NCBI GenBank assembly: GCA_023135855.1 | Contig: JAGLSH010000001.1 | Location: 1 to 44,231, forward strand | DNA from: Candidatus Omnitrophota bacterium | GTDB lineage: Bacteria; Omnitrophota; Gorgyraeia; Duberdicusellales; 4484-171 | Direction: 5' to 3' | DNA length: 44,231 nucleotides | The notes under the pieces: model-generated | What the model saw: only the letters and a program-made list of their open reading frames with translations | What the model was told of the DNA's origin: nothing | Database searches by the model: none | Shown: positions 1 through 16,744 of the stretch, piece after piece | Layout of the letters: each line of letters begins with the position of its first letter | Position numbering within the stretch: the stretch's first letter is position 1 | Translations under genes and position numbers: made by a program

Positions 1-1167
1 AAATATCTCCTCTTGAAATATTGCAGAATCAGGACTGACCCCTTCAAATACTGTTGGCTCGAAAAAGAACCCCTTCTTTAAAGCTTCATCTTCAGGGATT
101 TTCCCTCCACAAAGTAATTTTGACCCTTCTCGTTTAGCTTTAGCAACATAAGAAATAACTCTGTCACATTGGAACCTAGAAGCAAGTGGCCCAATTTGAC
201 TTTGGAAATCTAAAGAGTCTCCTATCTTTATTTTTTTAGCTTTTTCAACGAATTGACTAACAAAAGCATCGTAAATGCTCTCCTCTATTAATATTCTCGA
301 AGTCGCAGTGCACATTTGCCCTTGATTTAAGAATATCGAACATAAAGATCCGTTCACTGCTGCCTCTAGATCAGCATCTTTTAAAATTATGCTAGCTGAT
401 TTACCCCCTAACTCCATGATTAGCTTCTTAACACTTTTAGCTGAGTATTCTAAAATCTTCTTACCAACTGCATTTGACCCAGTAAAAGAAATCATATCTA
501 CTAAATTACTAGAACAAAGAATCTCGCCTACTTCTTCCCCTGGTCCAGGGATAACATTTACTATTCCATCAGGCACTCCTGCCTCTTTAACTATCTTAGC
601 CAATTCTAAAGCAGTTAAAGGTGTCAGACTTGAAGGTTTTAAAATAACAGCATTGCCAGCAGCAAGGGCTTGAGCCATCTTCCAAGAAGCTATTAACAAT
701 GGGTAATTCCAAGGAACAATTAAAACAACTACACCTCTAGGCTCTCTTAAAAAAGTTGCCTTAACCTTAGCTATCCTTGATTGAATATCTTGAGCCTCGC
801 TAGATAAATATTTTTCAAGATTATTAGCAAAATATTCAAAAGTTGCTGCTGCCGAAGGTATATCCATAAAGGTCGTTTCTTTAATCGGCTTACCAGAATT
901 TAGACTTTCTAGCTCAGCCAATTCTTTAGCCTTTGATAAAATACCTTCAGATATTTTGAGAAGAATACTCTTCCTATCAGCTAAACTAATATCTTTCCAA
1001 GAACCTTGATCGAAAGCAGCTCTTGCAGATTCAATCGCATATTTTGCATCTTTAGCACTAGCCATGCAAACTGTAGCAATAGTTTCATCATTTGAAGGAT
1101 TGATTATATCTCTTTTATACTTTGAATCCTTAAATTCCCCATTAATAAATAAATCGTATTTTTTCAT
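1..1167 (-). CDS. NAD(P)+-dependent aldehyde dehydrogenase (partial; C-terminus runs off the window start)
   Basis: Not a closed ORF in the track. Minus-strand ATG at 1167-1165 overlaps the TGA of the upstream gene (ATGA). My translation reads MKKYDLFINGEF...VPWNYPLL...MELGGKSASII...NQGQMCTATSR...FFFEPTVFEG, which contains the ALDH catalytic Glu (ELGGKS) and Cys (GQMCTA) motifs. The frame is open for 389 codons to position 1. Confidence 0.9.
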   Translation of the reverse strand, partial: MKKYDLFINGEFKDSKYKRDIINPSNDETIATVCMASAKDAKYAIESARAAFDQGSWKDISLADRKSILLKISEGILSKAKELAELESLNSGKPIKETTFMDIPSAAATFEYFANNLEKYLSSEAQDIQSRIAKVKATFLREPRGVVVLIVPWNYPLLIASWKMAQALAAGNAVILKPSSLTPLTALELAKIVKEAGVPDGIVNVIPGPGEEVGEILCSSNLVDMISFTGSNAVGKKILEYSAKSVKKLIMELGGKSASIILKDADLEAAVNGSLCSIFLNQGQMCTATSRILIEESIYDAFVSQFVEKAKKIKIGDSLDFQSQIGPLASRFQCDRVISYVAKAKREGSKLLCGGKIPEDEALKKGFFFEPTVFEGVSPDSAIFQEEIF

Positions 1168-2162
1168 TTAAATTTTACCTGTTTAAATATTTCAAATAGC
1201 CTACTAAAAGGAACATACCAACGTGAAAGCTGCCCTAGTTGACCTTGTAAACTCATCTTTCCTTGAGTAACTGCTACAAAAGGATCCAAACTGCCTAAGA
1301 AAACCTGCTGCCAAATATCATCTGATGCTGAAATAATAAAAGGAGCATCTTTGTCATAATCTAGTTTTATGATTTTCCCTTTTTCAAAATTAAACTTATA
1401 AACTTTATCACTCCCCTCTAAAGCAATAGCCAGCTTAAGAGTTAAATCTAACTCTTCCCCCTTGCTACTCATAAACTCATCTTTATTTACTAAATCCACT
1501 ATAGCTTGAATATGTTCAGAGGAAAACATCAAATATGAAGCATCGCCATCTAACTTTTCCTTAAGAGGCTTATCCAAATCATCTAACACACTCTTATCAA
1601 AAAGTCTAGCCACGGCTACTGTGCACACTGCCTCTTCCAAAGCTTCAACTAAGCTTAGAGCTTCATCAAAATTATTAGCAATGACTACTACGCCATGATT
1701 TTTTAAAACAACTAAATTATTAGTTTTTAAAGCTTCAATAACCTGATCAGGATTAGTTACTGTTGGTGTCTCTTGTTTTATTATTGGAACTTCCCCTAAA
1801 TAAAACTTAGTCTCAAAAGTTAGCGCTTTTAAGGATGAACTAACAGCAAAATAACCATTAATTAAAGGTGGATGACAATGAACTACTACTTTTGAAGGAA
1901 AGTTTTTATAAACAAGACTATGCAAAGACAGCTCTGAACTTGGATTCCGATCACTTTCTGACTTATTGCTATTCAAATTAACCTTCACAATGTCTAAGGG
2001 ATCCAAACTTCCTAAGAAAGACTGGCTAGCGGTAATCAAAATATTTTCATCATCTATCCTGGCGCTTACATTGCCAGACCTTGCCACTGTTAAGCCTTGA
2101 GAATATAAACGTTTTCCTACTCTTATCATTTCATCTTTTAACTTATTTTCTTGATCAACCAT
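1164..2162 (-). CDS. Class II aldolase/adducin-family enzyme (MtnB / FucA / 5-deoxyribulose-1-P aldolase-like) fused to a C-terminal SCP2 sterol-carrier-like domain
   Basis: N-terminal 200 aa carry GNVSAR, ELSLHSLVY (catalytic Glu), VVHCHPP and KNHGVVV (Zn His triad), as in class II aldolases. C-terminal about 110 aa (LTLKLAIALEG...FVAVTQGKMSLQGQLGQLSRW) looks like SCP2. ATG start; overlaps both neighbours. Confidence 0.75.
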   Translation of the reverse strand: MVDQENKLKDEMIRVGKRLYSQGLTVARSGNVSARIDDENILITASQSFLGSLDPLDIVKVNLNSNKSESDRNPSSELSLHSLVYKNFPSKVVVHCHPPLINGYFAVSSSLKALTFETKFYLGEVPIIKQETPTVTNPDQVIEALKTNNLVVLKNHGVVVIANNFDEALSLVEALEEAVCTVAVARLFDKSVLDDLDKPLKEKLDGDASYLMFSSEHIQAIVDLVNKDEFMSSKGEELDLTLKLAIALEGSDKVYKFNFEKGKIIKLDYDKDAPFIISASDDIWQQVFLGSLDPFVAVTQGKMSLQGQLGQLSRWYVPFSRLFEIFKQVKFK

Positions 2163-3111
2163 TTTTCACCTCTAGATAAATATGTTTAGTAATCAAATTA
2201 TTAGGAGTTATATCAAAGGCCGGATAATAAGCTTTTGAACCTTTAGGCGCAAGATGCACTCCTTGATATATTGTCAGCTCTTTATCAGGTCTTATCTCAA
2301 TCTTTATATCCTTACCTGTTTTGGCGCCAGACGTTGGAGCACAAAGTACATAAAAAGGAATTTTAAAATATTTAGCAATTAATCCTATTTGGTAAGTTCC
2401 AATTTTATTAGCGATGTCTCCATTTTGCGCTAAATTATCTGAGCCAACTATAACTTTATTAATCTTACCTTCTTCCATTACCTGAGCAACCATATTGTCA
2501 GTTATTATTGTAACATCAAAACCCGCGCGCATAAGTTCCCAAGCAGTAAGTCTTGAGCCCTGTAAATAAGGCCGTGTTTCAGTAACGAAAAAACTCACGA
2601 CTCTTCCTTTACTTTTAGCAAATCCAGCTATCAAAGGCAAGAGACCACTAACATTACAGTGAGTAAGAATTACATCACCATCCTTGATTAAACTAGCTGC
2701 TTCTTTTGCTTGTTTAATTCGAGCATTCTTTAGCATGTCTAGGAAACCTAATATTGCCTTATCCAAAGGCACACCTGTTTTATCCCAATCCAAAACCATA
2801 TTAGTTAAATACTTAAATGAAAGTGTAGGCCGAGTTGAATTTATTGCTTTAGCAACCTTAACCAAAATAGGAGAAATGTTCTTTTTACCCTTATTGCTTT
2901 TAATAACCATAAGAAAGATATACATAACTAATAGAACCTGACCAACAGCCCGAGTCCTCATCTGACGTATTGCTAGACAAGCTTGTGAATAATTCTTAGC
3001 TTTGACGTACTTCTCTTTATGAGGTAAAAGAGTCTCATCAAGTATATAAATTACATCGCCTTTTAATTTAATCGGCCAAAAAAGTGGTGAAAATTTAAAA
3101 TTCTTATCCAT
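2155..3111 (-). CDS. MtnA / eIF-2B alpha-beta-delta family sugar-1-phosphate isomerase (methylthioribose-1-P or 5-deoxyribose-1-P isomerase-like)
   Basis: ILTHCNVSGL (catalytic Cys), ETRPYLQGSRLTAWEL and VGSDNLAQNGDIANKIGTY (catalytic Asp) are the hallmark MtnA motifs. ATG start at 3111. Confidence 0.85.
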   Translation of the reverse strand: MDKNFKFSPLFWPIKLKGDVIYILDETLLPHKEKYVKAKNYSQACLAIRQMRTRAVGQVLLVMYIFLMVIKSNKGKKNISPILVKVAKAINSTRPTLSFKYLTNMVLDWDKTGVPLDKAILGFLDMLKNARIKQAKEAASLIKDGDVILTHCNVSGLLPLIAGFAKSKGRVVSFFVTETRPYLQGSRLTAWELMRAGFDVTIITDNMVAQVMEEGKINKVIVGSDNLAQNGDIANKIGTYQIGLIAKYFKIPFYVLCAPTSGAKTGKDIKIEIRPDKELTIYQGVHLAPKGSKAYYPAFDITPNNLITKHIYLEVKNG

Positions 3112-3124
3112 AAAAATGATTTAA

Positions 3125-3931
3125 CTAATTAAGAAGTTTTCTATATTCCTCTAATATCTTTAGAGTAACTTCTCCCGGCATACCTTGACCTAATAATTTA
3201 TCATCACACTCAACTAAAGGCATTACCTCCATTAAAGAACTAGTTATAAACGCCTCCCGGCAATTAAATAAATCTTCCAGAGAAGCTTCTCCTTCCTTTA
3301 GATCAATATTTAATTTTTCCAAAATGTTTATAACTAATCCCCGAGTAATCCCGCAAAAAGCACCATCTTCTATTGAAGGAGTAATAACTTTATTATCTTT
3401 AATTAAAAATAAATTACTTCTTGAGCCTCCAGCCAATACTCCTTTAGGGTTCAAAATTAAAGCTTCACTCTTTTTCTTCTTCTGAGCCCCAAACCAAGCT
3501 AATCTATTAGGTAAATAACTTAAAGACTTAACCTGAGAACAAATATTCTTACTACATCTTCGATGAGAAGAAACGGTTGCATCAAACCCTTTTTTGTAAG
3601 TGTCTTCCTTATAATATTCAAACTTATCTACATACATAAGCATTCCCACTCCTTGTCTCTTCTTATAAGCAGTTATTCTTATATAAGCATCTTCTAAGCC
3701 ATTCTCAACTAACAGGTTATGAATTATACTCTGCCAATCTAAGTCAACTTCCCCTATTTCCAGAAGAGTTAAGCTCCTGTCTAAACGTTCAATATGAGAG
3801 TTAAGAAAAGGAATCTTCCCCTTGTAAGCTCTTAAGACTTCAAATATTCCCCAACCAAATAAAAATCCCGGCTCAAAAACATCAGCCAAAGACTCCTTAT
3901 TAATCACCTCTCCATTGTCGTAAACTTTCAT
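3125..3931 (-). CDS. Class IV (fold type IV) PLP aminotransferase / aminodeoxychorismate-lyase-like
   Basis: 268 aa. VKSLSYLPNRLAW (PLP Lys context), GGSRSNLF and GITRG motifs are typical of the BCAT / D-aminotransferase / PabC family. Confidence 0.8.
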   Translation of the reverse strand: MKVYDNGEVINKESLADVFEPGFLFGWGIFEVLRAYKGKIPFLNSHIERLDRSLTLLEIGEVDLDWQSIIHNLLVENGLEDAYIRITAYKKRQGVGMLMYVDKFEYYKEDTYKKGFDATVSSHRRCSKNICSQVKSLSYLPNRLAWFGAQKKKKSEALILNPKGVLAGGSRSNLFLIKDNKVITPSIEDGAFCGITRGLVINILEKLNIDLKEGEASLEDLFNCREAFITSSLMEVMPLVECDDKLLGQGMPGEVTLKILEEYRKLLN

Positions 3932-4815
3932 TCAAATAATCCTGCTAAATTCTTATAAGTAATTTTCTCTTTAACTTCTTCACCTAGTTCATCTAAAATC
4001 TTAAGATTACTTTCTAAATCAAGATTAACTGGATAGTCTGACCCCCAAAGAATATGATCTTGACCAAATAAATCTAAAGCCAATTTAATATTACCAAGAG
4101 ATGATCCTGATGTATCCACATAAACTTCTTTTAGAATCTGAGATGGTGCTCTTCCTAAATCTTTAACCATCTCTCTTTTGCGTAACATTGTATAGACTCG
4201 ATCAAATCTATCTTTTAAGAAAGGAACAACTCCTCCCAAAGATGCCAAAATGAACTTTACTTTAAATTTATCCAGCACCCCTTCCATCATAAGCAAACCT
4301 AGAAAAGTAGATAGGTCTAAACTATACTCTAGAACCGGCATAAGCAAAGGATCTTTCACCCGGCTATAACCAATAGGGTTAATGGTTTGGGAATGAACAA
4401 AAATTGGTAAATTATGTTCCTGGACTGCTTCAAATAAAGGAAAAAGCTGATCAACTATAAACTTACCATTATAACTTGAAGCTAGGTTTATTGCCTTGAA
4501 TCCTCTGTTCTTTAACTGAGCCAATTCAGAAGAAATATTGCTTAAATCTTCTACATCAACTAGACAAGCTGCAACTATCTTAGGGTTTTCCTTTAAAATC
4601 TTCTCTACTTCTCTATTGTAGATTTCACTAACCTTTTTAAAACCACCCAATTTAAGGTAAGCATCTGTAGAAGGATAAACTAAAAAAGCTCTATCAATAT
4701 TATTACTATCTAAGAATTGATAAAGTTTATCCTTATCAGCCCAGACACCTTTATAAAAGTTAGTATGGTCTGAAAGCTCTCCGGGAATAAAGTGGATATG
4801 ACTATCAGCTAACAT
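3928..4815 (-). CDS. Amidohydrolase_2 (TIM-barrel metal-dependent hydrolase/decarboxylase, ACMSD-like) family protein
   Basis: N-terminal DSHIH (HxH metal motif) and C-terminal WGSDYP (metal Asp). 295 aa. The start is preceded by repeat family 1 and has no SD. Confidence 0.75.
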   Translation of the reverse strand: MLADSHIHFIPGELSDHTNFYKGVWADKDKLYQFLDSNNIDRAFLVYPSTDAYLKLGGFKKVSEIYNREVEKILKENPKIVAACLVDVEDLSNISSELAQLKNRGFKAINLASSYNGKFIVDQLFPLFEAVQEHNLPIFVHSQTINPIGYSRVKDPLLMPVLEYSLDLSTFLGLLMMEGVLDKFKVKFILASLGGVVPFLKDRFDRVYTMLRKREMVKDLGRAPSQILKEVYVDTSGSSLGNIKLALDLFGQDHILWGSDYPVNLDLESNLKILDELGEEVKEKITYKNLAGLFE

Positions 4816-4825
4816 AATATATTTA

Positions 4826-4892
4826 CGGTTAATGGGTATATGAGCTGATGAGTACTACACATTCACCCATCAACCCATTCACTCATTTACTC
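4826..4892. repeat. Intergenic imperfect-palindrome repeat, family 1 (copy A; core AATGGGTATATGAG at 4831-4844)
   Basis: Plus-strand arms AATGGGT/ACCCATT and TGATGAGT/ACCCATCA. In mRNA sense the 5' arm GAGTAAATGAGTGAATGGGTTGATGGGT matches copy C at 26 of 28 positions. Fills the whole gap between the radical SAM stop and the amidohydrolase ATG. Confidence 0.7.
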
Positions 4893-6353
4893 TTAAACGT
4901 GTTTTTCTCCCTTAACTGCACCTTCTTCCCACTTAGTTACACCCTTCATTACATCTTGGAAGCATAACTTAGCTAGGATATCAAAGTTACTAGTCATAAT
5001 CCTCTGGATTCTACCTGGCTTTGAGAAAAATTCTCTCATGCACCAAGAACCTAGCCTTCCATAATCTTCCAATGATAGATGTTCTGTGGCCATTACTGGG
5101 TGTAAGAAATCCCACTGAAGAAAATCTATTTTGCTAGGGTCAATCTCACCAGTTTTGATTCTTTGTCTCCAAATTGGAGAATTTGGTGCTGGGGTAACAT
5201 AGCCTACCCATAAAATATCTGGATCAACTACATCAGTAAATTCAAATCTATCCTTTATGATAGCTTCAGTATCACCATCAAAACCCATCATAATGTCAGC
5301 AACAATAGCAATATTGTTCTTTCGTAGGATTTCAATAGTCTTCTTTATCTGTTCAATGGTGATTCCTTTAGCTATTCTTTTTAACTCTGAAGCAGTGGTA
5401 ACTTCTATGCCAAACACTCCAGTAAACAAACCAGCTTCTTTCATCAAAGGTAAAATTTCTTCACAATTAACCCAATCAATAGCTCTACCTAAAGAAACCC
5501 ATTTAATCGGATTTTCTTTTTCCAATTTCAGCCGGCAAAACTTCTCTACTCTCTCAGGATCAACATTAAAATTATCATCCTGAATTACCACTACCTTTAC
5601 TCCGTACTCCTTATGAAGCAATTCTAGTTCTTCAATTACTCTTTCCGGAGATTTTGCCCGCCATTTTAGAAAATCTTCTGGATGCCTAGGGTCATATTGA
5701 TCCCACTCATAACAAAAAGTACAAGCAGAAGGACATCCTCTGGAAGTAACCATCTCAACGAATGGTTTCCAATGAGTATGACCAACATACTTCTCCATAG
5801 GAAATAAATCATAGGCTGGAAGTGGTAACTTATCTAAATCTGTATTCAGAGCCCTGTGCGGCCCCATAACAGCCTTACCATCTACTCTTGAGCTCACTCC
5901 AGCGATATCTGTTATTTCTTCTGACTTCTCTATCGCCGAAACTAAATCACAAAAAGCCTCTTCTTCACCCATGACTACATAATCAATAGCTGGATTGCTT
6001 TCTAGAGTAAATACTGGCATTGAGGAATACCACAATCCTCCAACAATTATTTTTATATTAGGCAGCACTTCTTTTATTAGTTTTGCTGCCTGATTAAAAT
6101 AATGAAGAATAGCAAACCCTCCATAAGAGTGAAGCATATCTCCAAGAACAAGAACATCAGGATTTTTTTGCTTAACTTGCTCAACCATTTCATCTGTTTC
6201 TATCTCTAAGGCTTTACAGTCTAAAACCTCTAAATCTTTATGACCTTTTTCTCTAATATAAGAAGCCCATTGAGCATAAAGTTGATCAGGGCCGAGATGT
6301 TTACCATGAGTTGCCCAAGCGCCTGACTTCGGTGTTAAAAATAAAATTTGCAT
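4893..6353 (-). CDS. B12-binding-domain radical SAM protein
   Basis: N-terminal Rossmann-like B12-binding region (DVLVLGDMLHSYGG). Radical SAM cluster motif SRGCPSACTFCYE (CxxxCxxC). 486 aa. Strong SD (AAGGAGGAG) upstream of the ATG at 6353. Confidence 0.9.
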   Translation of the reverse strand: MQILFLTPKSGAWATHGKHLGPDQLYAQWASYIREKGHKDLEVLDCKALEIETDEMVEQVKQKNPDVLVLGDMLHSYGGFAILHYFNQAAKLIKEVLPNIKIIVGGLWYSSMPVFTLESNPAIDYVVMGEEEAFCDLVSAIEKSEEITDIAGVSSRVDGKAVMGPHRALNTDLDKLPLPAYDLFPMEKYVGHTHWKPFVEMVTSRGCPSACTFCYEWDQYDPRHPEDFLKWRAKSPERVIEELELLHKEYGVKVVVIQDDNFNVDPERVEKFCRLKLEKENPIKWVSLGRAIDWVNCEEILPLMKEAGLFTGVFGIEVTTASELKRIAKGITIEQIKKTIEILRKNNIAIVADIMMGFDGDTEAIIKDRFEFTDVVDPDILWVGYVTPAPNSPIWRQRIKTGEIDPSKIDFLQWDFLHPVMATEHLSLEDYGRLGSWCMREFFSKPGRIQRIMTSNFDILAKLCFQDVMKGVTKWEEGAVKGEKHV

Positions 6354-6386: not shown

Positions 6387-7154
6387 TTATTTTTCTGGAT
6401 GATCCTGCTTAAAAGGTATCACTGGTTTCTTCCAAGGCGTTTGCTGATTAATTACCGCTAACTCTAAAGGGCAAGTATTTTCACTTTGAGTTAAAGCAAA
6501 TAAAACTGTGTCAGCTATTGCCTCTGGTTCCATTAATCTTCCCCCTTCCTCAGATATATCTTTTAACTTGCCAGTTAAAGGGGTTCTGGTTACTCCTGGA
6601 AATATTGAAGTAACTTTAATCCCAAAATCACGCATCTCCCAAAAAAGTCCCTTAGCAAAAGCCCTCAGGGCAACTTTCAAAGAAGTATAAACTATGAAAT
6701 TGCGTGGTGGGGGATCTACCATAACTGAACCACTAGTAATGTTCACAATATGCCCACCGCCAGCATCTTTCATATGATTAACAACTAAACGCGAAAGCAT
6801 GACATAACTATAGTAATTTGTATGCATGATTTTTTCAATATCCTCTACTGGCTGTTGCCAAAAAGGATACTGGCTTGAAACTCCTGCTCCGTTGACAACA
6901 ATATCTATCTTGCCAAATTTATCAATTGTCTTATTAACTAAATTCTCTAAATCACTTTGTTTAGTGACATCACACCTTATGCATAATACTTTTTCTTGGT
7001 TAGGAAGTGATTTTTTAATATCCTCTAAAACTTCCTCTCTCCTTGCGGCAAGAACAAGATTGGTACCTTGTGCGGCTAATTTCTCAACTACACTTTTACC
7101 AATCCCGCCACTGGCTCCAGTTATAATACAAACTTTATCGCCTAAATTACTCAT
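6387..7154 (-). CDS. Short-chain dehydrogenase/reductase (candidate ketoreductase)
   Basis: TGASGGIGK cofactor motif, VNGAGV, catalytic YTSLK (YxxxK). 255 aa. Confidence 0.9.
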   Translation of the reverse strand: MSNLGDKVCIITGASGGIGKSVVEKLAAQGTNLVLAARREEVLEDIKKSLPNQEKVLCIRCDVTKQSDLENLVNKTIDKFGKIDIVVNGAGVSSQYPFWQQPVEDIEKIMHTNYYSYVMLSRLVVNHMKDAGGGHIVNITSGSVMVDPPPRNFIVYTSLKVALRAFAKGLFWEMRDFGIKVTSIFPGVTRTPLTGKLKDISEEGGRLMEPEAIADTVLFALTQSENTCPLELAVINQQTPWKKPVIPFKQDHPEK

Positions 7155-7166: not shown

Positions 7167-8291
7167 TTAATTTATTATTTTCTTTAAATTAAAACCTAGA
7201 AAAAATATACTTAAAAATATCACAATAAATAAAACCTTAAATCCGGCTATTGATACTAATAGCCCTCCTAAAAAAGCACCTAGTCCTCCAAAACTAAAAC
7301 GCAAAGAACTGTTTAGGCTTGAAGCATCACGTAATATTCTATCAGGAAATGAAGTAAGATGAGACGCTAGTCCAACATGAGTAAGAGCCATGCCTGCGCC
7401 CCAAAAAGTTATCATTAATAAAATTAACTTATAATTACCTATAAAAATAAGAGAAAAAGCAAAAACACTCATTAAAGTAAAACCAATGCTGCTTATTTTA
7501 ATATTTCCAAAACGAGCACTTAAAAATCCCCCTGAAAACTCAAATATTATTGCAGCTAAGGTAGCTACAGTAAAAACTGAACTTATAGCCATCTGCCCTA
7601 AGGAAAAACTCTCACTTAAATAAACACCTAAACGCTGCTGCAGACCATGGTACAGAAGACTTCCCAGGGTAACTACTAAAAAGAAATTAATTACTTTTTT
7701 ATCTTTTAAAGTATTAAGATAACTTATCTTAAACTTATCAACTCTAAAATCAAAATCTTCTAATTTAGTAAGTACTAAAACAAATACCAATAAACTTGCA
7801 ATTGATGGTATTAGATAAAGTCCTAAAGGAAATTTTTCAAAAAATCCACTTAAAAACACACTGATAAAGTTTGAAAAATAAGAAAAACCAAAAAATATTC
7901 CAATAGTTTTTGCTTTCTCTCCAGGAGGGACAACCTTACCAACAGCAATAAGAACTAAAGGTACAAAGCTACAGCCAAAACAACCCATTAAAAATCTAGC
8001 TATAAAAGCTTGCTCAATGCTCCTTGATAAACTAAAGAAAAAAGATGATAGGAAAAATCCTAAAGTTGCAATTAGAAGAATCTTTTTAACCTTAACTATT
8101 CTAGTAAAAGGCGCCCAAACAAGAGCAAAAACCCCATAAGGAAGCATGTAAAGCCAAGTAAGGGGTAAGGCTTGAGCTTTATCTATCCCAAAATAAACAG
8201 CTATTGATGGTATTAGAGCGGCCATAGCTGAAACACCGAATGATATTACAAAGAACATCAGACAAAAAATATATAAACTTTTCTTAGGCAT
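7167..8291 (-). CDS. MFS-type transporter
   Basis: 374 aa with about 11-12 hydrophobic helices throughout. Overlaps the upstream SRPBCC gene by 8 nt. Confidence 0.8.
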   Translation of the reverse strand: MPKKSLYIFCLMFFVISFGVSAMAALIPSIAVYFGIDKAQALPLTWLYMLPYGVFALVWAPFTRIVKVKKILLIATLGFFLSSFFFSLSRSIEQAFIARFLMGCFGCSFVPLVLIAVGKVVPPGEKAKTIGIFFGFSYFSNFISVFLSGFFEKFPLGLYLIPSIASLLVFVLVLTKLEDFDFRVDKFKISYLNTLKDKKVINFFLVVTLGSLLYHGLQQRLGVYLSESFSLGQMAISSVFTVATLAAIIFEFSGGFLSARFGNIKISSIGFTLMSVFAFSLIFIGNYKLILLMITFWGAGMALTHVGLASHLTSFPDRILRDASSLNSSLRFSFGGLGAFLGGLLVSIAGFKVLFIVIFLSIFFLGFNLKKIIN

Positions 8292-9648: not shown

Positions 9649-9885
9649 TTAGAATTGTTTTTTCCTTTCGATTAAATCAACTATTTCATTAACAGTAGAA
9701 AATTTGGTAATCTCATTGGTTTCAATCTTTACACCAAAGTGCTTATTAAAAGTAACCACCAGCTCTACCATCTCTGTTGAATCAACACCAATGGAATCAT
9801 ATAATTTCTGATCGGCTTTTACCTCATCTTCATTTATGTCCAATGTCTTACTTATAAGCTCTATAACTTCTTTCTTTAATTCCAT
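9649..9885 (-). CDS. Acyl carrier protein
   Basis: 78 aa. Phosphopantetheine attachment motif GVDSTEMVELV. SD AGGAGG before the ATG. Confidence 0.85.
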   Translation of the reverse strand: MELKKEVIELISKTLDINEDEVKADQKLYDSIGVDSTEMVELVVTFNKHFGVKIETNEITKFSTVNEIVDLIERKKQF

Positions 9886-9894
9886 AGATACCTC

Positions 9895-11130
9895 CTATTT
9901 CTTCTCAACAGCTAAGACAACATTTATTCCACCCCGCCCTCTAGCAATAATTAAAGCCTTGTTGATAGTTTTCTCTTTAAGCTTATTAGGGGTGTAATCT
10001 AAATCACAATAAGGATCATTCATTAATTGATTAATTGTTGGTATCACTACTGAGTTCTTCATTGAAAATAATGTAATAATCAAATCTAGGGCACTTTGAG
10101 CGCCTAATAAATTACCGTAAATACTCTTAGGAGCACTAAGAGCAATATTTTTTATATTCTCTCCAAATACATTCTTTAGCGCTTGGGTTTCAAGATAATC
10201 TCCAATTACAGTTGCTTCACCATCTAAGCAAATATAATCAACATCTTCCTTATTCCACTTAGCATCTTTTAAGCACTCCTTAATTGCATATTCTAAATCA
10301 TCTGATTCAGGGGCATATCGCAAATAGTGATAGCCATCAGAAGAAAAACCTATTCCTTTAATAAATCCATAAATAGGAGCTCCTCGTTTCTTAGCTTTTG
10401 ATTCTTTCTCTAGGATTACTATTCCTGAACCTTCACCTAAAACAAATCCATCTCTATCTAAGTCATAAGGTTTATATGCTGTTTTAGGATTAAGATTATT
10501 TTTTGATAACTGACCGCAAGTATTTGCGCTCAATAAAGCATAAGGAGTAATCGGAGCTTCCATTCCTCCGGCTAATACAAAATCATTCTTATCCTGAGCT
10601 ACCACCTTGGAGCCATACCACAAACTCAAAGCTGATGATGCCTTGTCAGCAACTATAGTCTTACTATATCCTTTGAAGCCATAATATATAGTAACTTGGC
10701 CCTGAGGCGCTGCTGGGAACCAAGCTGAAGCCATATAGGGAGAAATACCTTCTCTTCCCTCTATATACATATCTCTTAACTCAGTCTCGGCAAAAAGCCA
10801 ACCACCAATAGCATTGCCCATAAATACGCCAACTCTATTCTTATCAATTTTTTCTAAATCCATTCCAGAATCTTTTATAGCTTGTTCTGAAGCAACTAAA
10901 GCCATATGAGAAAACACATCTATCTTCTTAACTAATCTTCCTGAAACATGCGAATAGTGATCCAACTCATGAACTTGGCCAGCAATCCGAGAAGGATAAA
11001 GACTAGCATCAAATCTCTTAACTTCATCAATAAAAGATTCGCATTTTTTCAGATTAGCCCAAAAAGTTTCTTTTTTTAATCCGCATGGTGAAACTACGCC
11101 TACGCCAGTTATTGCAACTCTATCACTCAT
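9895..11130 (-). CDS. Ketosynthase-beta / chain-length-factor-like protein (KS fold, catalytic triad absent)
   Basis: Aligns along its full length to the upstream KS. The active-site positions read ADKASS (Cys to Lys), CLDGEAT (His to Asp) and YGNLLG (His to Asn). The track start at 11142 is GTG. I prefer the ATG at 11130, which has GGAGG 5 nt upstream and lies 2 nt after the KS-alpha TAA. Confidence 0.85.
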   Translation of the reverse strand: MSDRVAITGVGVVSPCGLKKETFWANLKKCESFIDEVKRFDASLYPSRIAGQVHELDHYSHVSGRLVKKIDVFSHMALVASEQAIKDSGMDLEKIDKNRVGVFMGNAIGGWLFAETELRDMYIEGREGISPYMASAWFPAAPQGQVTIYYGFKGYSKTIVADKASSALSLWYGSKVVAQDKNDFVLAGGMEAPITPYALLSANTCGQLSKNNLNPKTAYKPYDLDRDGFVLGEGSGIVILEKESKAKKRGAPIYGFIKGIGFSSDGYHYLRYAPESDDLEYAIKECLKDAKWNKEDVDYICLDGEATVIGDYLETQALKNVFGENIKNIALSAPKSIYGNLLGAQSALDLIITLFSMKNSVVIPTINQLMNDPYCDLDYTPNKLKEKTINKALIIARGRGGINVVLAVEKK

Positions 11131-11132
11131 GA

Positions 11133-12380
11133 TTACCTCCACCTCTTAAACACAATAGAAGAATGTATTCCGGAAAATCCACTGCTAGTTTTAAGTATAT
11201 ACTCTGGCATAATCTCCCGCTTTTTATTAGGAATATAATCTAGATCACATTTAGGATCAGGTTCTTCCTGATTAATAGTTGGTGGAAGATACCCTTTCTC
11301 AAAAATCATACAACACAATACACTCTCTACAGCATTAGCTGCTGCTAAAGGATGACCGATCATCGACTTAATCGAGCTTATCGGCACCTTATAAGCAAAA
11401 TCTCCGAAAACCTTTTTGTAAGCATCGGTTTCAAAAGCATCATTCTGACGAGTAGATGATCCATGAGCACTTATATAGCCAATGTCCTCATTCTTTATTC
11501 CTGAATTCTTTATAGCTTCCCGCATTGAACGAGCCATAGGTTCACCATCTGCAGGTAAATCAGTCATATGATATGCATTGCAACTTGTTCCAAACCCGAG
11601 AATTTCAGCATAAATGTGAGCCCCTCTTTTTTTAGCATGTTCTAATTCTTCTAAAATTAAAATTCCAGCTGCTTCACTAATAACAAAGCCATTCCTCTTA
11701 TTATCAAAAGGACGGCTAGCCTTATGAGGTTCTTCATTATTCTTAGCCAAAACATTTACTACATCAAAAGCTCCAAAAGTAATCGGTGTGATTGGTGCCT
11801 CAGTTGCCCCAGCAATAACTATATCTTGTCTTCCTTCTTGAATAAGTTCAAAAGCAAAACCTAAAGAATCAGTTCCAGCAGTGCACCCAGTTGAAACCGT
11901 ACAATTCATTCCCTTTGTCCCATGAATACCACTTACCTCAGCACTAGGAGTATTAAACATAGCAGCATCATAAAGAAAGGGTCTACCTTTTCGAGGATCA
12001 ATCGGATTCTTGCCCCAATCAGTAACTAGCAAGAATTCTTCCTCCATAAGACGGGTTCCACAAATAGCATTTGCTAGGATTACACCACATCTACGCCTAT
12101 CTAATTTATTAAAATCTAAATTAGCATCTTCTATTGCACCCTTAGCCGCAGCAATTCCGAACTGAACATATCTATCCATACGCCTATGCTCAGCTATATT
12201 AAATTTTAAAGGGTCAAAATTTAAATCTTGAGAAGCAATCTTTGAAACAAATAAACTTACATCAAAATTTTCAACCTTTTCAATGTAAGATTTACCTTCA
12301 ATTAAATTATTATAAAATTCATTCTTCTCTTCTCCAGCTCCACAAATAACTCCAATTCCAGTAATTACTACTCTCTTCAC
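11133..12380 (-). CDS. Beta-ketoacyl synthase (KS-alpha; FabF/type II PKS KS family)
   Basis: Intact Cys-His-His triad: STGCTAGTDS, SAHGSSTRQND, MIGHPLAAA. GTG start with AGGAGG 8 nt upstream. Confidence 0.9.
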   Translation of the reverse strand: MKRVVITGIGVICGAGEEKNEFYNNLIEGKSYIEKVENFDVSLFVSKIASQDLNFDPLKFNIAEHRRMDRYVQFGIAAAKGAIEDANLDFNKLDRRRCGVILANAICGTRLMEEEFLLVTDWGKNPIDPRKGRPFLYDAAMFNTPSAEVSGIHGTKGMNCTVSTGCTAGTDSLGFAFELIQEGRQDIVIAGATEAPITPITFGAFDVVNVLAKNNEEPHKASRPFDNKRNGFVISEAAGILILEELEHAKKRGAHIYAEILGFGTSCNAYHMTDLPADGEPMARSMREAIKNSGIKNEDIGYISAHGSSTRQNDAFETDAYKKVFGDFAYKVPISSIKSMIGHPLAAANAVESVLCCMIFEKGYLPPTINQEEPDPKCDLDYIPNKKREIMPEYILKTSSGFSGIHSSIVFKRWR

Positions 12381-13016: not shown

Positions 13017-13017
13017 A

Positions 13018-14013: not shown

Positions 14014-14027
14014 TTTTTCTACTCCTT

Positions 14028-14285
14028 TTAACTGATATATTGTGAGTAATCAATATCCAATTTACTAAGTAATCTTTCAAGCATGCTTTTGAAGGCTGGG
14101 GGAACTTCCTGAAAAAAAGCAATAATCAAATCTTTGTCTTCAACTTCTTTTGAGTCTCTCCCCTGGGCCAATTCTTCAGACTTTTGTTTAATAAGTTGCT
14201 CAGCAATTGTTCTGTGAAATTGCGGTAAATTGTCAGTTACTTTGTTAAACTTATTTTTTGTTTCTTGATTCCAAATAATTCCCAT
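14028..14285 (-). CDS. Small hypothetical protein (possibly PCP_red-like helical domain)
   Basis: 85 aa. Good SD (GGGGAGAGGG) and ATG, in an operon context. WNQETKNKFNKVTDNLPQFHRTIAEQL weakly resembles the protochlorophyllide-reductase C-terminal-like domain (memory only). Confidence 0.4.
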   Translation of the reverse strand: MGIIWNQETKNKFNKVTDNLPQFHRTIAEQLIKQKSEELAQGRDSKEVEDKDLIIAFFQEVPPAFKSMLERLLSKLDIDYSQYIS

Positions 14286-14303
14286 ACTATCCCTCTCCCC
14301 TTC

Positions 14304-15038
14304 TTATAATTCCTCAACAACTTTGAATCCTAAGTCTATCATTTTCATTTCAGCTTCAAAAAATCTATAATCAGCAAATCCTAATGTTCCGGTAATAAGA
14401 TTATCAGAAACTGCTAAGATAGCTGCAACCTTTCTTTTGTAGAGATTGGCTACGGTCACAAATGGTGAAGTTACCATGTCAACAGCAATTGCCCCTTTCT
14501 CTATATAGGGGTTAACTATTTCTTTAGTCTCCTTAAACAAAGCATCAGTTGTCCACACTCCTCCACGATGTAAAGTGCCCTCAGTTTTAAAAACCTCTTC
14601 TATTTTTGATGTTAGTTCATCGTCTACTTTAGATATATAATTATCATCTACATAATACTTAGTGGCTCCATCTCCTCGAATAATATCAGCAGCTAAAACA
14701 TAATCTCCAACATTCATATCCTCTTTTAAAGCTCCGCAAGACCCCAGTCTAATCAAAGTATTGATTCCGCCAACACATAAAAACTCAGTAACAAAGGCTG
14801 AATCAGGAGCATAGAAACCACCATTCCCAACAGTTACTTTCTTACCCTTATAGAACCCAGTCCAAAAAGTATAACCAAGAAAGGTAAAATTCTTTACACA
14901 ATCCTCTAATTTCTCTAAACACATTTTTGCCCTGTGCTGTTGTCCGCTAATTAAAGCAATTTCGCCAAAATCACCATCTTTAAACTGTAAAGAGCTCAAA
15001 AGATCTTTTGGGCTTAAATGAATATCTCTTTGCATCAT
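14304..15038 (-). CDS. Nucleoside phosphorylase, PNP_UDP_1 family (purine / uridine / MTA phosphorylase-like)
   Basis: RLGSCGAL motif, GDGATKYY, AVDMV. 244 aa. SD AGGAG before the ATGATG. Confidence 0.75.
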   Translation of the reverse strand: MMQRDIHLSPKDLLSSLQFKDGDFGEIALISGQQHRAKMCLEKLEDCVKNFTFLGYTFWTGFYKGKKVTVGNGGFYAPDSAFVTEFLCVGGINTLIRLGSCGALKEDMNVGDYVLAADIIRGDGATKYYVDDNYISKVDDELTSKIEEVFKTEGTLHRGGVWTTDALFKETKEIVNPYIEKGAIAVDMVTSPFVTVANLYKRKVAAILAVSDNLITGTLGFADYRFFEAEMKMIDLGFKVVEEL

Positions 15039-15078
15039 AACTAATCTCCTATTGTGCGCATCATGATATGCGCGTATT

Positions 15079-15137
15079 ATCCCGAAACATTTAAATACTT
15101 AAAAATTTCATAGAAATTTTTAAGTATGTTTCGGAAT
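15079..15137. repeat. Intergenic palindromic element, family 2 (copy E)
   Basis: ATCCCGAAAC (15079-15088) pairs with GTTTCGGAAT (15128-15137). These enclose ATACTTAAAAATTT (15095-15108) / AAATTTTTAAGTAT (15114-15127). No U-tract follows on either strand. Confidence 0.65.
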
Positions 15138-15175
15138 AAGTGATTCTAAGTTTTTTTTGCGATCCCTATGGGAGC

Positions 15176-16684
15176 TTAGAAAAGCCTAGATTCACTAAGT
15201 TTTTGCTTATCAATTTTTCCAGTTCTATTTTTAGGTAAATCTCCTACAAATTCAAAGTAATGAGGAATCTTAAAATGAGCTAAGTGTTCTTTTAAAAAAT
15301 CTTTTAACTCTTGTTCACTAAAGCTATCCTCATCTTTGGAAACTATAAATGCTTTAGGCACTTCTCCACGTAAATCATCAGCTACACCAATAACAGCAAC
15401 TTCAGCTACTTTGGAATATCTATGTATTTTTTCTTCAACCTCAGCTGAAAAAACTATTTCTCCGGCCACTTTAATCATATCTTTTTTTCTTCCGACTATA
15501 TAATAAAGCTGGTTAGAGTCAACTCTAACAATATCTCCAGTCTTAAGCCACCCGTCTTCTGTTAAAACTTCTTTAGTTAAGCCAGGTTCTTTATAATACT
15601 CTCTCATAATTGCTTCACCCTTAACCCAAAGTTCTCCTTGAGAAGGACTATCTAACTTATTGCCATTATCATCAACAATCTTTGCTTCAATATTAAAATC
15701 AAGATAACCAATACTTGAAATTTTGCTTTCATCAGGAGGAGAAAAAGAATTAGGAGCAGATGTTTCAGTCATCCCCCAACCGTTTAGAACTGCCGCCTGA
15801 GGGCATAATTTATGAAATCTCTTTAAAAGTATTGGTGATGATGGTGCACCAAAAACAACTGCATATCTTAAAGAGGAAAGGTCAAATTTACCATAGCCTT
15901 TTAAAGAAAGAATAGCTATATACATTGCCGGAACAATACAAAATATAGTAACTTTATGACGCTCTATATTCTTTAGAAATTCTAAAGGTTGAAATCTTTC
16001 CATGAGAACAAGGGTTGAAGAAAGCTGAACTGTCATCAGTATATAACCTAGTCCTCCAACATGAGAAAAAGGAACTCCTCCACATAAAGTTATATCTTCC
16101 TCAGATAATTCCAAAAAGTGATTAATAACCTGAGAAGGATTATTTAAGTGTCTATACTCTAGGCATACCCCTTTAGGGTGGCCAGTAGACCCGGAAGTAT
16201 AAAATATAGCTGCTAAGTTATTTTCCTTATACTCAACTAAAGGTTGACTGGGGCTGCTCTTCTCTAAAACTGTGCCCCAAGAAGAAAATCCTTCTGCTCC
16301 TTCTTCAGATACAATCACCTCTTCCAAACTCTTACACTTATCCTTAACATTAGCTAAATCTATTTTAGGAGCGGCAATTAAAACCTTTGCCTGACTATGA
16401 TTTATAAAATTAATTATCTCATTTTCAGTTAACATGAAGTCCAAAGGAACTACTACTGACCCCATACTAAATACACCTAAAAAAGTAAATATAGTTTGCG
16501 GAGTATTGGGAAGAAATATCGCAACTTTATCATTGCAACCCAAGCCTGCCTTAAGAAGGTAATTAGCAAGCTTAAATGAAGAGTCTCTAACTTGTGAAAA
16601 AGTAATTGCCTTTTCTTTAAACAGAATGGCTGATCTTTGAGGATACCTTTTAGCCTGTTTTGTGAGTAATTCTCTTATATTCAT
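15176..16684 (-). CDS. AMP-dependent acyl-CoA synthetase/ligase (adenylate-forming; candidate starter-unit activation)
   Basis: YTSGSTGHPKGV, GWLKTGD and C-terminal PKNRTGKIDK motifs. 502 aa. First gene after the predicted promoter. No SD upstream of the ATG. Confidence 0.9.
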   Translation of the reverse strand: MNIRELLTKQAKRYPQRSAILFKEKAITFSQVRDSSFKLANYLLKAGLGCNDKVAIFLPNTPQTIFTFLGVFSMGSVVVPLDFMLTENEIINFINHSQAKVLIAAPKIDLANVKDKCKSLEEVIVSEEGAEGFSSWGTVLEKSSPSQPLVEYKENNLAAIFYTSGSTGHPKGVCLEYRHLNNPSQVINHFLELSEEDITLCGGVPFSHVGGLGYILMTVQLSSTLVLMERFQPLEFLKNIERHKVTIFCIVPAMYIAILSLKGYGKFDLSSLRYAVVFGAPSSPILLKRFHKLCPQAAVLNGWGMTETSAPNSFSPPDESKISSIGYLDFNIEAKIVDDNGNKLDSPSQGELWVKGEAIMREYYKEPGLTKEVLTEDGWLKTGDIVRVDSNQLYYIVGRKKDMIKVAGEIVFSAEVEEKIHRYSKVAEVAVIGVADDLRGEVPKAFIVSKDEDSFSEQELKDFLKEHLAHFKIPHYFEFVGDLPKNRTGKIDKQKLSESRLF

Positions 16685-16695
16685 TGTTTAAATGG

Positions 16696-16725
16696 TAGTA
16701 AAATCTGAATAGTAAAATTTTACTA
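16696..16725 (-). promoter_or_regulatory. Candidate operator: 16-bp perfect palindrome TAGTAAAATTTTACTA (16710-16725) plus a third TAGTAAAAT half-site (16696-16704)
   Basis: Read directly. The palindrome overlaps the predicted -10 box, and the extra half-site lies 14 bp away between the -10 box and the ATG. Confidence 0.45.
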
Positions 16726-16744
16726 TTTATGGCTACTTAGTCAA
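16717..16744 (-). promoter_or_regulatory. Sigma70-like promoter of the biosynthetic operon
   Basis: On the minus strand: TTGACT (16744-16739), a 16-nt spacer, then TAAAAT (16722-16717). Lies about 35 nt upstream of the acyl-CoA ligase ATG and downstream of the terminator at 16806-16838. Confidence 0.5.

Follow-up and report, generated by a model that had tools for sequence, protein, structure and literature searches.

A candidate anaerobe-type aromatic type II polyketide operon conserved across Omnitrophota, with a predicted 5'-deoxynucleoside arm

Type II polyketide synthases (PKSs) are usually seen as accessory systems, mostly as antibiotic machines of actinomycetes. The closest described relatives of the system reported here are the ant (AQ-256, Photorhabdus), den (dendrubins, Dendrosporobacter), and pcy (pyxidicyclines) clusters, for which an architecture of ketosynthase (KS), chain-length factor (CLF), acyl carrier protein (ACP), TcmN-type cyclase, and OxyN-type cyclase has been called ancestral (PMC7693217). 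In the ant system, the CoA-ligase-like protein AntG is needed for the activity of AntDEF and is proposed to load the ACP (PMC6638757). We analysed a 44,231-nucleotide stretch of DNA from a Candidatus Omnitrophota bacterium (contig JAGLSH010000001.1, positions 1 to 44,231; hereafter the window). At its left end lies an operon, ~17 kb in full when the part beyond the window edge is included, that is fixed gene for gene across this uncultured phylum, whose members are ultra-small anaerobes with genomes of 1-2 Mb. The operon may encode an anaerobe-type aromatic type II polyketide pathway with B12-radical S-adenosylmethionine (SAM) tailoring and built-in 5'-deoxynucleoside processing, inherited vertically across Omnitrophota. 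We give this reading about an even chance.

The operon resembles the ant, den, and pcy clusters in encoding a KS-alpha, a CLF, an ACP, TcmN- and OxyN-type cyclases, a ketoreductase (KR), and a CoA-ligase-like protein. The role of AntG provides a precedent for the ligase that opens the Omnitrophota operon. However, the Omnitrophota TcmN-type cyclase is monomeric and placed after the OxyN-type cyclase, the operon has no phosphopantetheinyl transferase (PPTase; AntB) and no AntI-type hydrolase, and its CLF has Lys or Arg at the Cys site. In addition, the Omnitrophota operon encodes a B12-binding radical SAM enzyme (B12-rSAM), an Amidohydro_2 enzyme, a ketopantoate-reductase-family protein (KPR) paired with a TIGR04076 protein, a DUF2621-like protein, and an arm of phosphorylase, isomerase, aldolase-SCP2, and aldehyde dehydrogenase. 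It is phylum-wide, whereas clusters of the ant/den/pcy kind are sporadic.

Type II PKS clusters are also described from clostridia (clostrubin clr, wexrubicin wex), and, as in the C. botulinum cluster considered here, the producers are strict anaerobes. This Clostridium botulinum cluster (L080; SGKU01000039.1, 8608-29879), apparently uncharacterised, resembles the Omnitrophota operon in a B12-rSAM gene directly before KS-CLF, an SRPBCC cyclase, a major facilitator superfamily (MFS) transporter, and DUF2621-like segments; it also has an ACP. However, its KS is only 44% identical to the Omnitrophota KS, and the cluster lacks a shunt arm but encodes three HemN-like radical SAM enzymes, a U32 (UbiU/V-like) protein that includes a DUF2621 segment, an Asn synthase, and a malonyl transferase of its own. 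At least three radical SAM genes accompany the one B12-rSAM gene (two with weak HemN_C matches, one cut by the locus end), together with genes for an FMN reductase, a DAHP synthase, and a SAM synthetase. By gene content, the cluster may hold a fully oxygen-independent tailoring set.

The ketosynthase pair, carrier protein, and cyclases

The core of the operon consists of KS-A, KS-B, and an ACP (Table 1). KS-A has the catalytic residues Cys166, His306, His343, and Lys338, and the C-H-H-K pattern is present in 61 of 61 copies. In the window copy of KS-B, the catalytic Cys is replaced by Lys and the two His residues by Asp and Asn. The pattern across 61 loci is K/R-D-N-K, with Lys at the Cys site in 46 loci and Arg in 16. 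These replacements indicate that KS-B is an inactive partner. The phosphopantetheine Ser of the ACP is invariant in 59 loci. An earlier note on the window had proposed a minimal type II PKS set made of a KS-alpha with an intact C-H-H triad, a catalytically dead KS-beta, and an ACP, and all three components are verified by these residues.

Canonical actinomycete CLFs have Gln at the Cys position, for decarboxylative priming. KS-B lacks this Gln in the 61 loci, and the nearest CLFs outside Omnitrophota lack it too, with Arg, Arg, Met, and Thr at that site. If KS-B starts at a GTG codon (415 residues), its gene overlaps that of KS-A by 10 nt; if it starts at the ATG at 11130, as in the public gene call (411 residues), a 2-nt gap separates them. 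KS-A is predicted from this junction to be translationally coupled to KS-B.

Neither KS reaches the cut-off of the fabF equivalog TIGR03150 (493.75 bits), with 453 bits for KS-A and 372 bits for KS-B. Compared with solved structures, KS-A scores best, at 371 bits, with AntD of the Photorhabdus anthraquinone PKS (48% identity), 350 bits with Bacillus subtilis FabF, and 350 bits with actinorhodin KS-alpha. With the reducing-type KS Iga11 (6kxd_A) it scores 212 bits, which places it outside the reducing-type group by score. In residue-level alignments, KS-A, AntD, and actinorhodin KS-alpha have in common a 5-residue insertion and the motif AYHMTDLPADG, neither of which is found in FabF. In a bootstrapped neighbour-joining tree of 38 sequences, the Omnitrophota KS-A clade (100% bootstrap) joins a group of AntD, the C. 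botulinum KS, and P0122 ('minimal PKS KS alpha') at 71%. The KS-A group adjoins the actinorhodin group, and the FabF proteins of Bacillus and Thermus lie elsewhere. Pfam scans of the 44-kb window find no fabH, fabD, fabG, fabZ, or fabI. Being below the fabF cut-off and having no fab genes alongside in the window, KS-A and KS-B are unlikely to be housekeeping FabF, and the KS-alpha assignment of the earlier note stands in that KS-A falls outside the housekeeping clade.

Among 1.8 billion representatives clustered at 50% identity, KS-A relatives outside Omnitrophota are at most 53% identical; the query's own Omnitrophota cluster is not at the top of this search, which is used only for outside relatives. 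The named ones are the C. botulinum KS and IMG-annotated 'minimal PKS ketosynthase (KS/KS alpha)' proteins. Besides L080, three outside clusters are informative. L081 encodes a KR, a Lactamase_B cyclase, a KS, and a CLF; L082 encodes a cupin, a PF04199 cyclase, an O-methyltransferase, a KS, and a CLF; and L083 encodes a fused KS-CLF, a SnoaL protein, a Lactamase_B protein, a UbiA protein, and methyltransferases. By this gene content, the genomic contexts of the nearest outside KSs are aromatic type II PKS clusters. KS-B is closer to CLFs than to the KSs of L081 and L080.

Both cyclases have relatives inside such clusters. The PF04199 cyclase, whose motif HxGTHxDYS[FY]H is invariant across the related loci, is 44% identical to the cyclase adjoining KS/CLF in L082, and the SRPBCC protein shares 39% identity with its L080 counterpart, a polyketide cyclase. 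The two assignments, made in the earlier note, pass their Pfam thresholds, and its other domain calls exceed theirs as well. It had also noted that no malonyl-CoA:ACP transacylase, PPTase, or FabZ-type dehydratase is visible, and Pfam scans of the open reading frames (ORFs) find none of the three anywhere in the 44-kb window. Likewise, no enoyl reductase is present in the operon or the window.

Conservation across Omnitrophota

A genome scan with KS-B as the query, covering one genome per GTDB species, returns 57 loci at 68-96% identity, all of them in Omnitrophota-type metagenome-assembled genomes (MAGs); the automatic label of some reads 'uncultured Planctomycetia', and one sits in a Methanosarcinales bin. 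Among the 57 loci are chromosomes of 1.28, 1.52, and 1.82 Mb, and the nearest locus is that of 'Candidatus Susulua stagnicola'. The other matches are at 25-38% identity and are mostly Bacteroidales or other FabF-like proteins, with one exception (L075, see below). The best 120 database relatives of KS-A are 74-88% identical, and the named ones are all Candidatus Omnitrophota/Omnitrophica.

When all 18 proteins are searched against the related loci by tblastn, the gene order is identical wherever the locus is long enough. Median identities are 81% for KS-A, 79% for KS-B, 78% for the B12-rSAM, 74% for the short-chain dehydrogenase/reductase (SDR), 73% for both cyclases, 72% for the phosphorylase, and 71% for the TIGR04076 protein. 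The MFS transporter is the least conserved core gene (54%). The ligase is found in 45 of 59 related loci (median identity 61%), its absences being due in part to truncated loci. The class IV aminotransferase is optional: it is seen in only 18 related loci and is missing from the closest relatives (L006-L009). One deeper subclade has the isomerase, aldolase, and dehydrogenase at 35-40% identity, yet in the same order. Several genes are fused: KPR with TIGR04076 in L003 and L024, an aldehyde:ferredoxin oxidoreductase (AOR) with KPR and TIGR04076 in L053, and the aldolase with SCP2 in every locus that reaches the aldolase.

The flanking genes vary between loci, indicating that the block itself is the conserved unit. 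The same gene order in 57 species-level loci marks the operon as a vertically conserved trait of the phylum rather than a sporadic cluster, and it behaves like a core trait rather than an accessory biosynthetic gene cluster. A PKS fixed across a phylum of tiny genomes suggests a product that these cells depend on. Candidate roles are a pigment or redox shuttle, a membrane phenolic, and a predation or host-interaction factor.

We found no characterised near-identical cluster in the literature (MIBiG was not compared), which agrees with the earlier note, where the gene combination could not be matched to any nameable cluster. Neither of the two main Omnitrophota genome papers mentions polyketides or ketosynthases. 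One of two near mentions in the literature covered is a KS-CLF catalogue with 'Candidatus Omnitrophica' among its 14 phyla, an entry that may concern this operon (PMC10132072). The KS/CLF core is of a known kind; the accessory set and the fixation across the phylum are new. In particular, the combination of an 'ancestral' KS/CLF core, oxygen-independent tailoring by a B12-rSAM, a tandem TIGR04076 protein with DUF2621, and a line from 5'-deoxynucleoside to acid is without earlier description. Being compact, the operon could be tested as a source of the first Omnitrophota natural product and for the use of SAM by-products as polyketide building blocks.

Two groups of loci have irregular labels or copy number. 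L010 (JAIWAR010000044.1), from a bin labelled 'Methanosarcinales archaeon', has the Omnitrophota operon at 88% identity and is probably mis-binned. The label is of note, as a member of the Omnitrophota reportedly attacks Methanosaeta. L052 and L075 are two contigs of the same MAG (QZM4_1.bins.127.Tibet). Each carries the operon's 5' half, ~70% identical to the window, so that the bin contains two strains or the operon is truly duplicated. L075, at 35% a distant match to KS-B, was considered as a housekeeping FabF and rejected, as tblastn identifies it as a second copy of the operon's 5' half in which the query matches KS-A.

Predicted pathway, the second arm, and competing readings

The following scheme builds on the observed enzyme families, active-site states, phylogenetic placement, synteny, and fusions, and all its substrates, its order of steps, and its product are predictions. 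The AMP-forming ligase, as a counterpart of AntG, would prime the ACP or CoA with a starter acid; such priming would be needed because KS-B has Lys or Arg in place of the priming Gln. Housekeeping FabD and AcpS would supply malonyl-ACP and the phosphopantetheine arm, and KS-A and KS-B would build a poly-beta-keto chain. The SDR would reduce one keto group, and the two cyclases would fold and aromatise the chain. The Amidohydro_2 enzyme, whose best PDB matches are ACMSD, IDCase, LigW, and gamma-resorcylate decarboxylase, would remove the terminal carboxylate in a non-oxidative decarboxylation of an aromatic acid. The B12-rSAM, which has a CxxxCxxC motif, would carry out an oxygen-independent C-methylation or a C-C/oxidative step and would be the source of 5'-deoxyadenosine. 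The KPR protein (158.6 bits for the subfamily TIGR00745, cut-off 141) and its TIGR04076 partner would perform a further reduction, and the MFS protein would export the hydrophobic product.

Narrower assignments of several enzymes fail. The best PDB matches of the SDR are 7-alpha-hydroxysteroid dehydrogenase (95 bits) and FabG (~85 bits); this ranking is generic, no PKS ketoreductase is among the top matches listed, and an ActIII-type C9 ketoreductase is rejected. The B12-rSAM scores 206 bits for BchE, 142 bits for HpnJ, and 86 bits for the ladderane radical SAM model, all far below the NCBIfam cut-offs. The BchE, HpnJ, MtnB, and FucA equivalogs are rejected, all scoring far below the cut-offs, as are cispentacin-type AmcF/AmcG (AmcF 167 bits against 325, AmcB 45.5 bits against 80).

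The tandem TIGR04076 protein has 845 homologue clusters, of which the best 120 are 74-100% identical, with invariant Cys and His residues. Two of its homologues are labelled Deltaproteobacteria and Patescibacteria. Its AlphaFold2 (AF2) model has a pLDDT of 76, and Foldseek finds no match in the PDB at E <= 0.001, so a fold-based function was dropped. One Omnitrophota subclade inserts a tungsten-type AOR (AFOR_N and AFOR_C; L053:5235-8732, L050:5011-6894, L045:16508-18397), which is free-standing in L050 and L045 and in L053 is fused to KPR and the tandem TIGR04076 protein to give a chain of 1165 residues. This fusion hints that the TIGR04076 protein is a redox partner, and by this association it possibly is one. 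In the same three loci a second DUF2621 copy stands directly after the B12-rSAM gene (L053:16136-16378 and the equivalent places in L050 and L045). In L080, DUF2621-like segments (3585-3824, 3859-5292) form the C-terminus of a HemN-like radical SAM enzyme and also occur in the Peptidase_U32 (UbiU/V-like) protein. From such neighbours, a possible role of the DUF2621-like protein is that of an accessory of anaerobic redox or radical SAM enzymes. An extra ORF of ~148 residues, absent from the window and without a Pfam match, follows the DUF2621 gene in some loci (L053:4796-5245, L050:4509-4952, L035:6550-6996); its length is like that of the SRPBCC protein, and it may be a second cyclase.

The second arm begins with the phosphorylase, whose best solved relative is the Sulfolobus solfataricus 5'-methylthioadenosine (MTA) phosphorylase 1jds (89 bits). 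It contains the motifs RLGSCG and SDN, which we take to be the phosphate loop and the Asp motif of DeoD-type purine nucleoside phosphorylases. The isomerase, with THCN and GSD motifs, passes TIGR00524 (200.5 bits, cut-off 185.85) and falls below the mtnA equivalog (228.5 bits, cut-off 279). The aldolase matches 6vop, 6btd, and 6voq best in the PDB (62-64 bits), of which 6btd is DrdA, the 5-deoxyribulose-1-phosphate aldolase of Bacillus thuringiensis (PMC6079011). In NCBIfam, aldolase models rank above MtnB models for this protein, all below cut-off. The C-terminal 133 residues of the aldolase have an AF2 pLDDT of 89, and their top Foldseek match is a Thermus SCP2 protein (TM 0.79, E 7e-9), followed by UbiJ-SCP2 (E ~6e-6) and alkylsulfatase SCP2 domains. 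A precomputed SCP2 match is present in about half of the best 120 of 1157 aldolase homologue clusters. The confident model and the SCP2 matches in homologues indicate that the lipid-binding domain is real and conserved, and a hydrophobic ligand therefore remains likely.

A phosphorylase-initiated variant of the dihydroxyacetone phosphate (DHAP) shunt is on record (PMC6079011). The second arm shares the phosphorylase and isomerase types with the DHAP shunt and 5-deoxyribose disposal (MtnP or DrdK, MtnA/DrdI, Ald2/DrdA), and its aldolase is a candidate for the Ald2/DrdA type. The arm is predicted to be like the phosphorylase-initiated form, converting 5'-deoxyadenosine or MTA to adenine, DHAP, and an aldehyde. 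However, the Omnitrophota genes form no compact cluster of their own: within the PKS operon, the phosphorylase comes second, and the isomerase and aldolase come sixteenth and seventeenth. Further differences are the SCP2 domain fused to the aldolase, the aldehyde dehydrogenase and ligase that complete the line, and scores that are all below the NCBIfam equivalog cut-offs. In the fluoroacetate/4-fluorothreonine route of Streptomyces cattleya, a 5'-substituted 5'-deoxyadenosine passes through a phosphorylase, an isomerase, and a fuculose-aldolase-like enzyme to a substituted acetaldehyde (PMC6079011). The Omnitrophota arm together with the aldehyde dehydrogenase corresponds to the post-fluorinase part of this route. 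The fluoroacetate pathway ends with an aldehyde dehydrogenase step that gives the substituted acetate. In contrast, no ORF of the window has a Pfam match to a DUF62 (PF01887) fluorinase/chlorinase-type enzyme, and the acid would feed the PKS through the ligase, which to our knowledge does not happen with the fluoroacetate acid in nature. The 'sugar-phosphate salvage-like module' of the earlier note is thus present, and is more precisely described as an arm like the DHAP shunt and the fluoroacetate route, ending in an aldehyde dehydrogenase.

Within the aromatic polyketide pathway, this arm would convert a SAM-derived 5'-deoxynucleoside to adenine, DHAP, and an aldehyde, and the aldehyde to an acid. 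The simplest substrate would be the 5'-deoxyadenosine left by the B12-rSAM, whose removal would spare that enzyme product inhibition, and the arm may hand a two-carbon acid back to the ligase. The SCP2 domain would probably hold the hydrophobic polyketide beside the arm enzymes, as UbiJ/UbiT do in quinone synthesis. By analogy, holding a hydrophobic aromatic intermediate for tailoring enzymes is a plausible role, with the differences that the Omnitrophota SCP2 is fused to an aldolase, that no Ubi enzymes are present, and that sequence identity is ~10-14%. The gene order in 57 loci, the overlaps, the fusions, and the order of the tail genes at 35-40% identity point to functional coupling of all parts.

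A number of observations weigh against this pathway or its details. In the KS tree, bootstrap support at deep nodes is weak (30-40%), KS-B has a higher score with FabF (297 bits) than with the actinorhodin CLF (203 bits), the SRPBCC assignment is only ~3 bits above the Pfam threshold, and the SDR is generic, without particular likeness to ActIII or FabG. As the B12-rSAM falls short of all NCBIfam cut-offs, its chemistry is a guess. The split of the arm to both ends of the operon and the lipid-binding domain on the aldolase go beyond pure by-product disposal, which also leaves the constant aldehyde dehydrogenase and the extra AOR of one subclade unexplained. In addition, KS conservation of 70-94% in genomes of 1.3-1.8 Mb is more in line with a primary-like role than with a classical antibiotic. 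The features of the arm keep alive a reading in which SAM supplies a two-carbon starter or side chain, and phylum-wide conservation in tiny genomes does the same for a primary-like product. Taken together, the arm and ligase could be biosynthetic, turning the C4'-C5' end of a SAM-derived nucleoside (5'-deoxyadenosine, MTA, or an adenosylated hydrophobic intermediate could be the source) into a starter or side chain of the polyketide. The product would be a hydrophobic aromatic compound with a primary-like role, present in nearly all Omnitrophota, such as a phenolic lipid or quinone-like carrier made without oxygen. We regard this as doubtful; if true, it would be a new way for SAM carbon to enter polyketides, and the type II PKS would be the first to be 'core' to an entire phylum.

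The starter part of that proposal, taken by itself, is equally unlikely in our judgement. The arm and ligase would cut the C4'-C5' end off a SAM-derived 5'-X-5'-deoxyadenosine and yield X-CH2-COOH as starter or side chain, with H, methylthio, or a hydrophobic group added by radical chemistry as candidates for X. Each of the four enzyme types that follow the fluorinase in the fluoroacetate route has a representative here, with a ligase as the first gene (PMC6079011), and the arm genes bracket the operon and are conserved with it. The absence of the priming Gln from KS-B implies that a dedicated starter is needed, the genuine SCP2 fold on the aldolase suggests a hydrophobic substrate or product, and the AOR fused to KPR and TIGR04076 in one subclade stresses aldehyde/acid chemistry. 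However, no maker of a 5'-X-adenosine is seen (neither the DUF62 type nor an MqnE/HpnH-type adenosylating radical SAM enzyme), the sole radical SAM enzyme being B12-type and BchE-like; with X = H the product would be plain acetate, already in cells; the ligase resembles a medium- or long-chain ligase; and we found no literature linking a type II PKS with an MTA phosphorylase. That same ligase, whose nearest NCBIfam model is the long-chain-fatty-acid CoA ligase PRK06187 (430 bits, cut-off 476), is in keeping with a primary-like phenolic lipid or polyketide quinone needed by most Omnitrophota, either a membrane phenolic or a quinone-like electron carrier, which we rate slightly lower again. Here the ligase would load a fatty acid, the KSs would add a few malonyl units, the cyclases would form an alkyl-resorcylic ring, and the Amidohydro_2 enzyme, whose family includes gamma-resorcylate decarboxylase, would decarboxylate it before methylation by the B12-rSAM. 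Known alkylresorcinol and polyketide-quinone routes use type III PKSs, and the operon has no prenyltransferase or hydroxylase, although the related L083 cluster has a UbiA prenyltransferase. Phylum-wide conservation in streamlined 1.3-1.8 Mb genomes and the match of the SCP2 fold to UbiJ-SCP2 of ubiquinone synthesis speak for such a product, while a secreted polycyclic product would account for the MFS exporter and the two ring cyclases equally well or better. Canonical quinone pathways are incomplete or patchy in Omnitrophota, but many members are predicted to be fermentative acetogens (PMC10066038).

A pathway like fatty acid synthesis, in which the KSs elongate acyl-ACP with housekeeping FabG/Z/I and the radical SAM enzyme modifies a ladderane, aryl-polyene, or other reduced chain, is improbable. 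KS-A does pass the broad PRK07314 'KAS II' subfamily cut-off (440 bits against 387), KS-B is most like FabF, an SCP2 domain and an MFS protein are present, and antiSMASH has called 'ladderane' in Omnitrophota MAGs, calls that may concern this operon (PMC9902471). However, KS-A misses the fabF equivalog cut-off and clusters with KS-alpha proteins of the aromatic type, and the two polyketide cyclases have relatives in aromatic clusters. A ladderane-type cluster is rejected on the radical SAM model (TIGR04072, 86 bits against a cut-off of 360), and a highly reducing or aryl-polyene system is rejected on the low Iga11 score relative to AntD, with Iga11 and not ApeO as the reference, and on the missing dehydratase. 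The aryl-polyene or lipid alternative kept by the earlier note is thereby weakened, with a hydrophobic ligand still likely. Running the arm in reverse would join a polyketide-derived aldehyde to DHAP, convert the product to a ribose-1-phosphate analogue, and attach a base to give a 5'-C-substituted nucleoside conjugate. Phosphorylases of this kind favour nucleoside synthesis. For aldolases of this class, condensation is the thermodynamically favoured direction (PMC6079011). A hydrophobic aldehyde would be held by the SCP2 domain, and the AOR of some lineages could reduce the acid to the aldehyde. Yet the AOR is limited to one subclade, the universal enzyme is an NAD(P)-type aldehyde dehydrogenase that normally works towards the acid, and we know of no precedent, which makes this direction very improbable. 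Just as improbable is mere adjacency of a PKS operon and an unrelated 5'-deoxynucleoside salvage operon. DHAP-shunt gene trios do exist as independent clusters in many bacteria (PMC6079011), but here they are distributed over one overlapping transcription unit, and their order is kept in 57 loci despite different flanks and survives replacement by, or divergence to, genes at 35-40% identity.

Operon layout and neighbouring sequence

From 16684 to base 1, the ORF listing, extended by translating the left edge, yields 18 genes that all run along the minus strand; 17 are complete and one is cut at the edge, in agreement with the ~18 tightly joined genes counted in the earlier note (Table 1). Six junctions are overlaps of 4-10 nt; of the gaps, eight measure 1-33 nt and the remaining three measure 77, 119, and 137 nt. 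The start codon of the aldehyde dehydrogenase gene, at 1167, is part of an ATGA overlap. A longer copy of the locus on contig DAOWHS010000094.1 of GCA_030641305.1, which encodes KS-A residue for residue, shows that the operon stops ~330 nt past the window edge and is followed, 3' of the aldehyde dehydrogenase gene, by the housekeeping genes rlmN, rsmF, and hup. Domain calls in Table 1 are Pfam matches above the gathering scores, except those for the TIGR04076 repeat and the aldehyde dehydrogenase, which are from NCBIfam. The two KS proteins have Pfam scores of 143/87 and 149/113 bits.

Table 1 Features of the operon and its 5' boundary, with genes in order of transcription
Feature	Coordinates	Strand	Evidence
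AMP-forming acyl ligase, 502 aa	15176..16684	-	PF00501 281 bits; PF13193
DeoD/MTAP-type nucleoside phosphorylase, 244 aa	14304..15038	-	PF01048 (PNP_UDP_1) 119 bits
DUF2621-like protein, 85 aa	14028..14285	-	PF11084 33.6 bits (cut-off 27.7)
Ketopantoate-reductase-family NAD(P)H oxidoreductase (KPR), 331 aa	13018..14013	-	PF02558 and PF08546 (ApbA 89, 66 bits)
Tandem TIGR04076 repeat protein, 202 aa	12408..13016	-	TIGR04076 92 bits (cut-off 33), two stretches
KS-A, catalytic KS-alpha-type ketosynthase, 415 aa	11133..12380	-	Pfam KS
KS-B, dead CLF-like partner, 415 aa from GTG	9895..11142	-	Pfam KS
Acyl carrier protein, 78 aa, GVDS Ser	9649..9885	-	PF00550 (PP-binding) 51 bits
PF04199 metal-dependent cyclase, OxyN/DpsY type, 268 aa	8841..9647	-	99 bits
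Monomeric SRPBCC (TcmN-type) cyclase/aromatase candidate, 145 aa	8284..8721	-	PF10604 (Polyketide_cyc2) 30.1 bits (cut-off 27.4); PF03364 24.1 bits (cut-off 23.4)
MFS transporter, 374 aa, probable exporter	7167..8291	-	PF07690 (MFS_1) 95 bits
Classical SDR, 255 aa, ketoreductase candidate	6387..7154	-	PF00106 (adh_short) 165 bits
B12-binding radical SAM enzyme, 486 aa, BchE/HpnJ-like	4893..6353	-	PF02310 44 bits; PF04055 90 bits
Amidohydro_2 (ACMSD/LigW/IDCase-type) enzyme, 295 aa	3928..4815	-	PF04909 72 bits
Class IV aminotransferase, 268 aa	3125..3931	-	PF01063 (Aminotran_4) 160 bits
MtnA-like (5-substituted) ribose-1-phosphate isomerase, 318 aa	2155..3111	-	PF01008 (IF-2B) 191 bits
Class II aldolase (DrdA/Ald2-like) with C-terminal SCP2 domain, 332 aa	1164..2162	-	PF00596 124 bits; PF02036 23.0 bits (cut-off 21.3)
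NAD(P)-dependent aldehyde dehydrogenase, cut at edge, 389/497 aa, last gene	1..1167	-	BADH 416 bits on partial protein
Sigma-70-like promoter motif TTGACT-16-TAAAAT	16717..16744	-	10/12 match, 33 nt upstream of first ATG
13-bp hairpin followed by T-run	16811..16839	-	marks 5' boundary of operon

The sigma70-like motif that the earlier note placed upstream of the first gene is present, but such sites are not enriched: the region contains three promoter-like sites, against 2.4 +/- 1.3 in shuffled sequences. As the operon promoter, the motif is plausible, not proven. The hairpin and T-run further upstream are likely the terminator of the upstream tRNA methyltransferase gene. A riboswitch or other RNA element in the 363-nt leader was rejected, as Rfam gives no matches at gathering scores in the leader or the whole window, and only chance-level ones at E <= 1.

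The GC content is uniform over the cluster and its flanks (0.32-0.37). GC skew is strongly negative (-0.16 to -0.32) across nearly the whole window (1-44231), where almost all genes are on the minus strand, consistent with strong co-orientation with replication on one replichore. The skew is positive only at 20331-22926, the sole plus-strand block, which contains three small ORFs without Pfam matches, a TPR protein, and an IS200-type Y1 transposase (22372-22926). Further along the minus strand, 24001-28770 encodes a 789-aa protein with TPR, DUF3857, and transglutaminase-core domains, a 140-aa TPR protein, and a 662-aa PilZ-domain protein. At 32788-33279, a 163-aa fusion of bactofilin and HTH_17 adjoins a second small HTH_17 protein (32412-32729).

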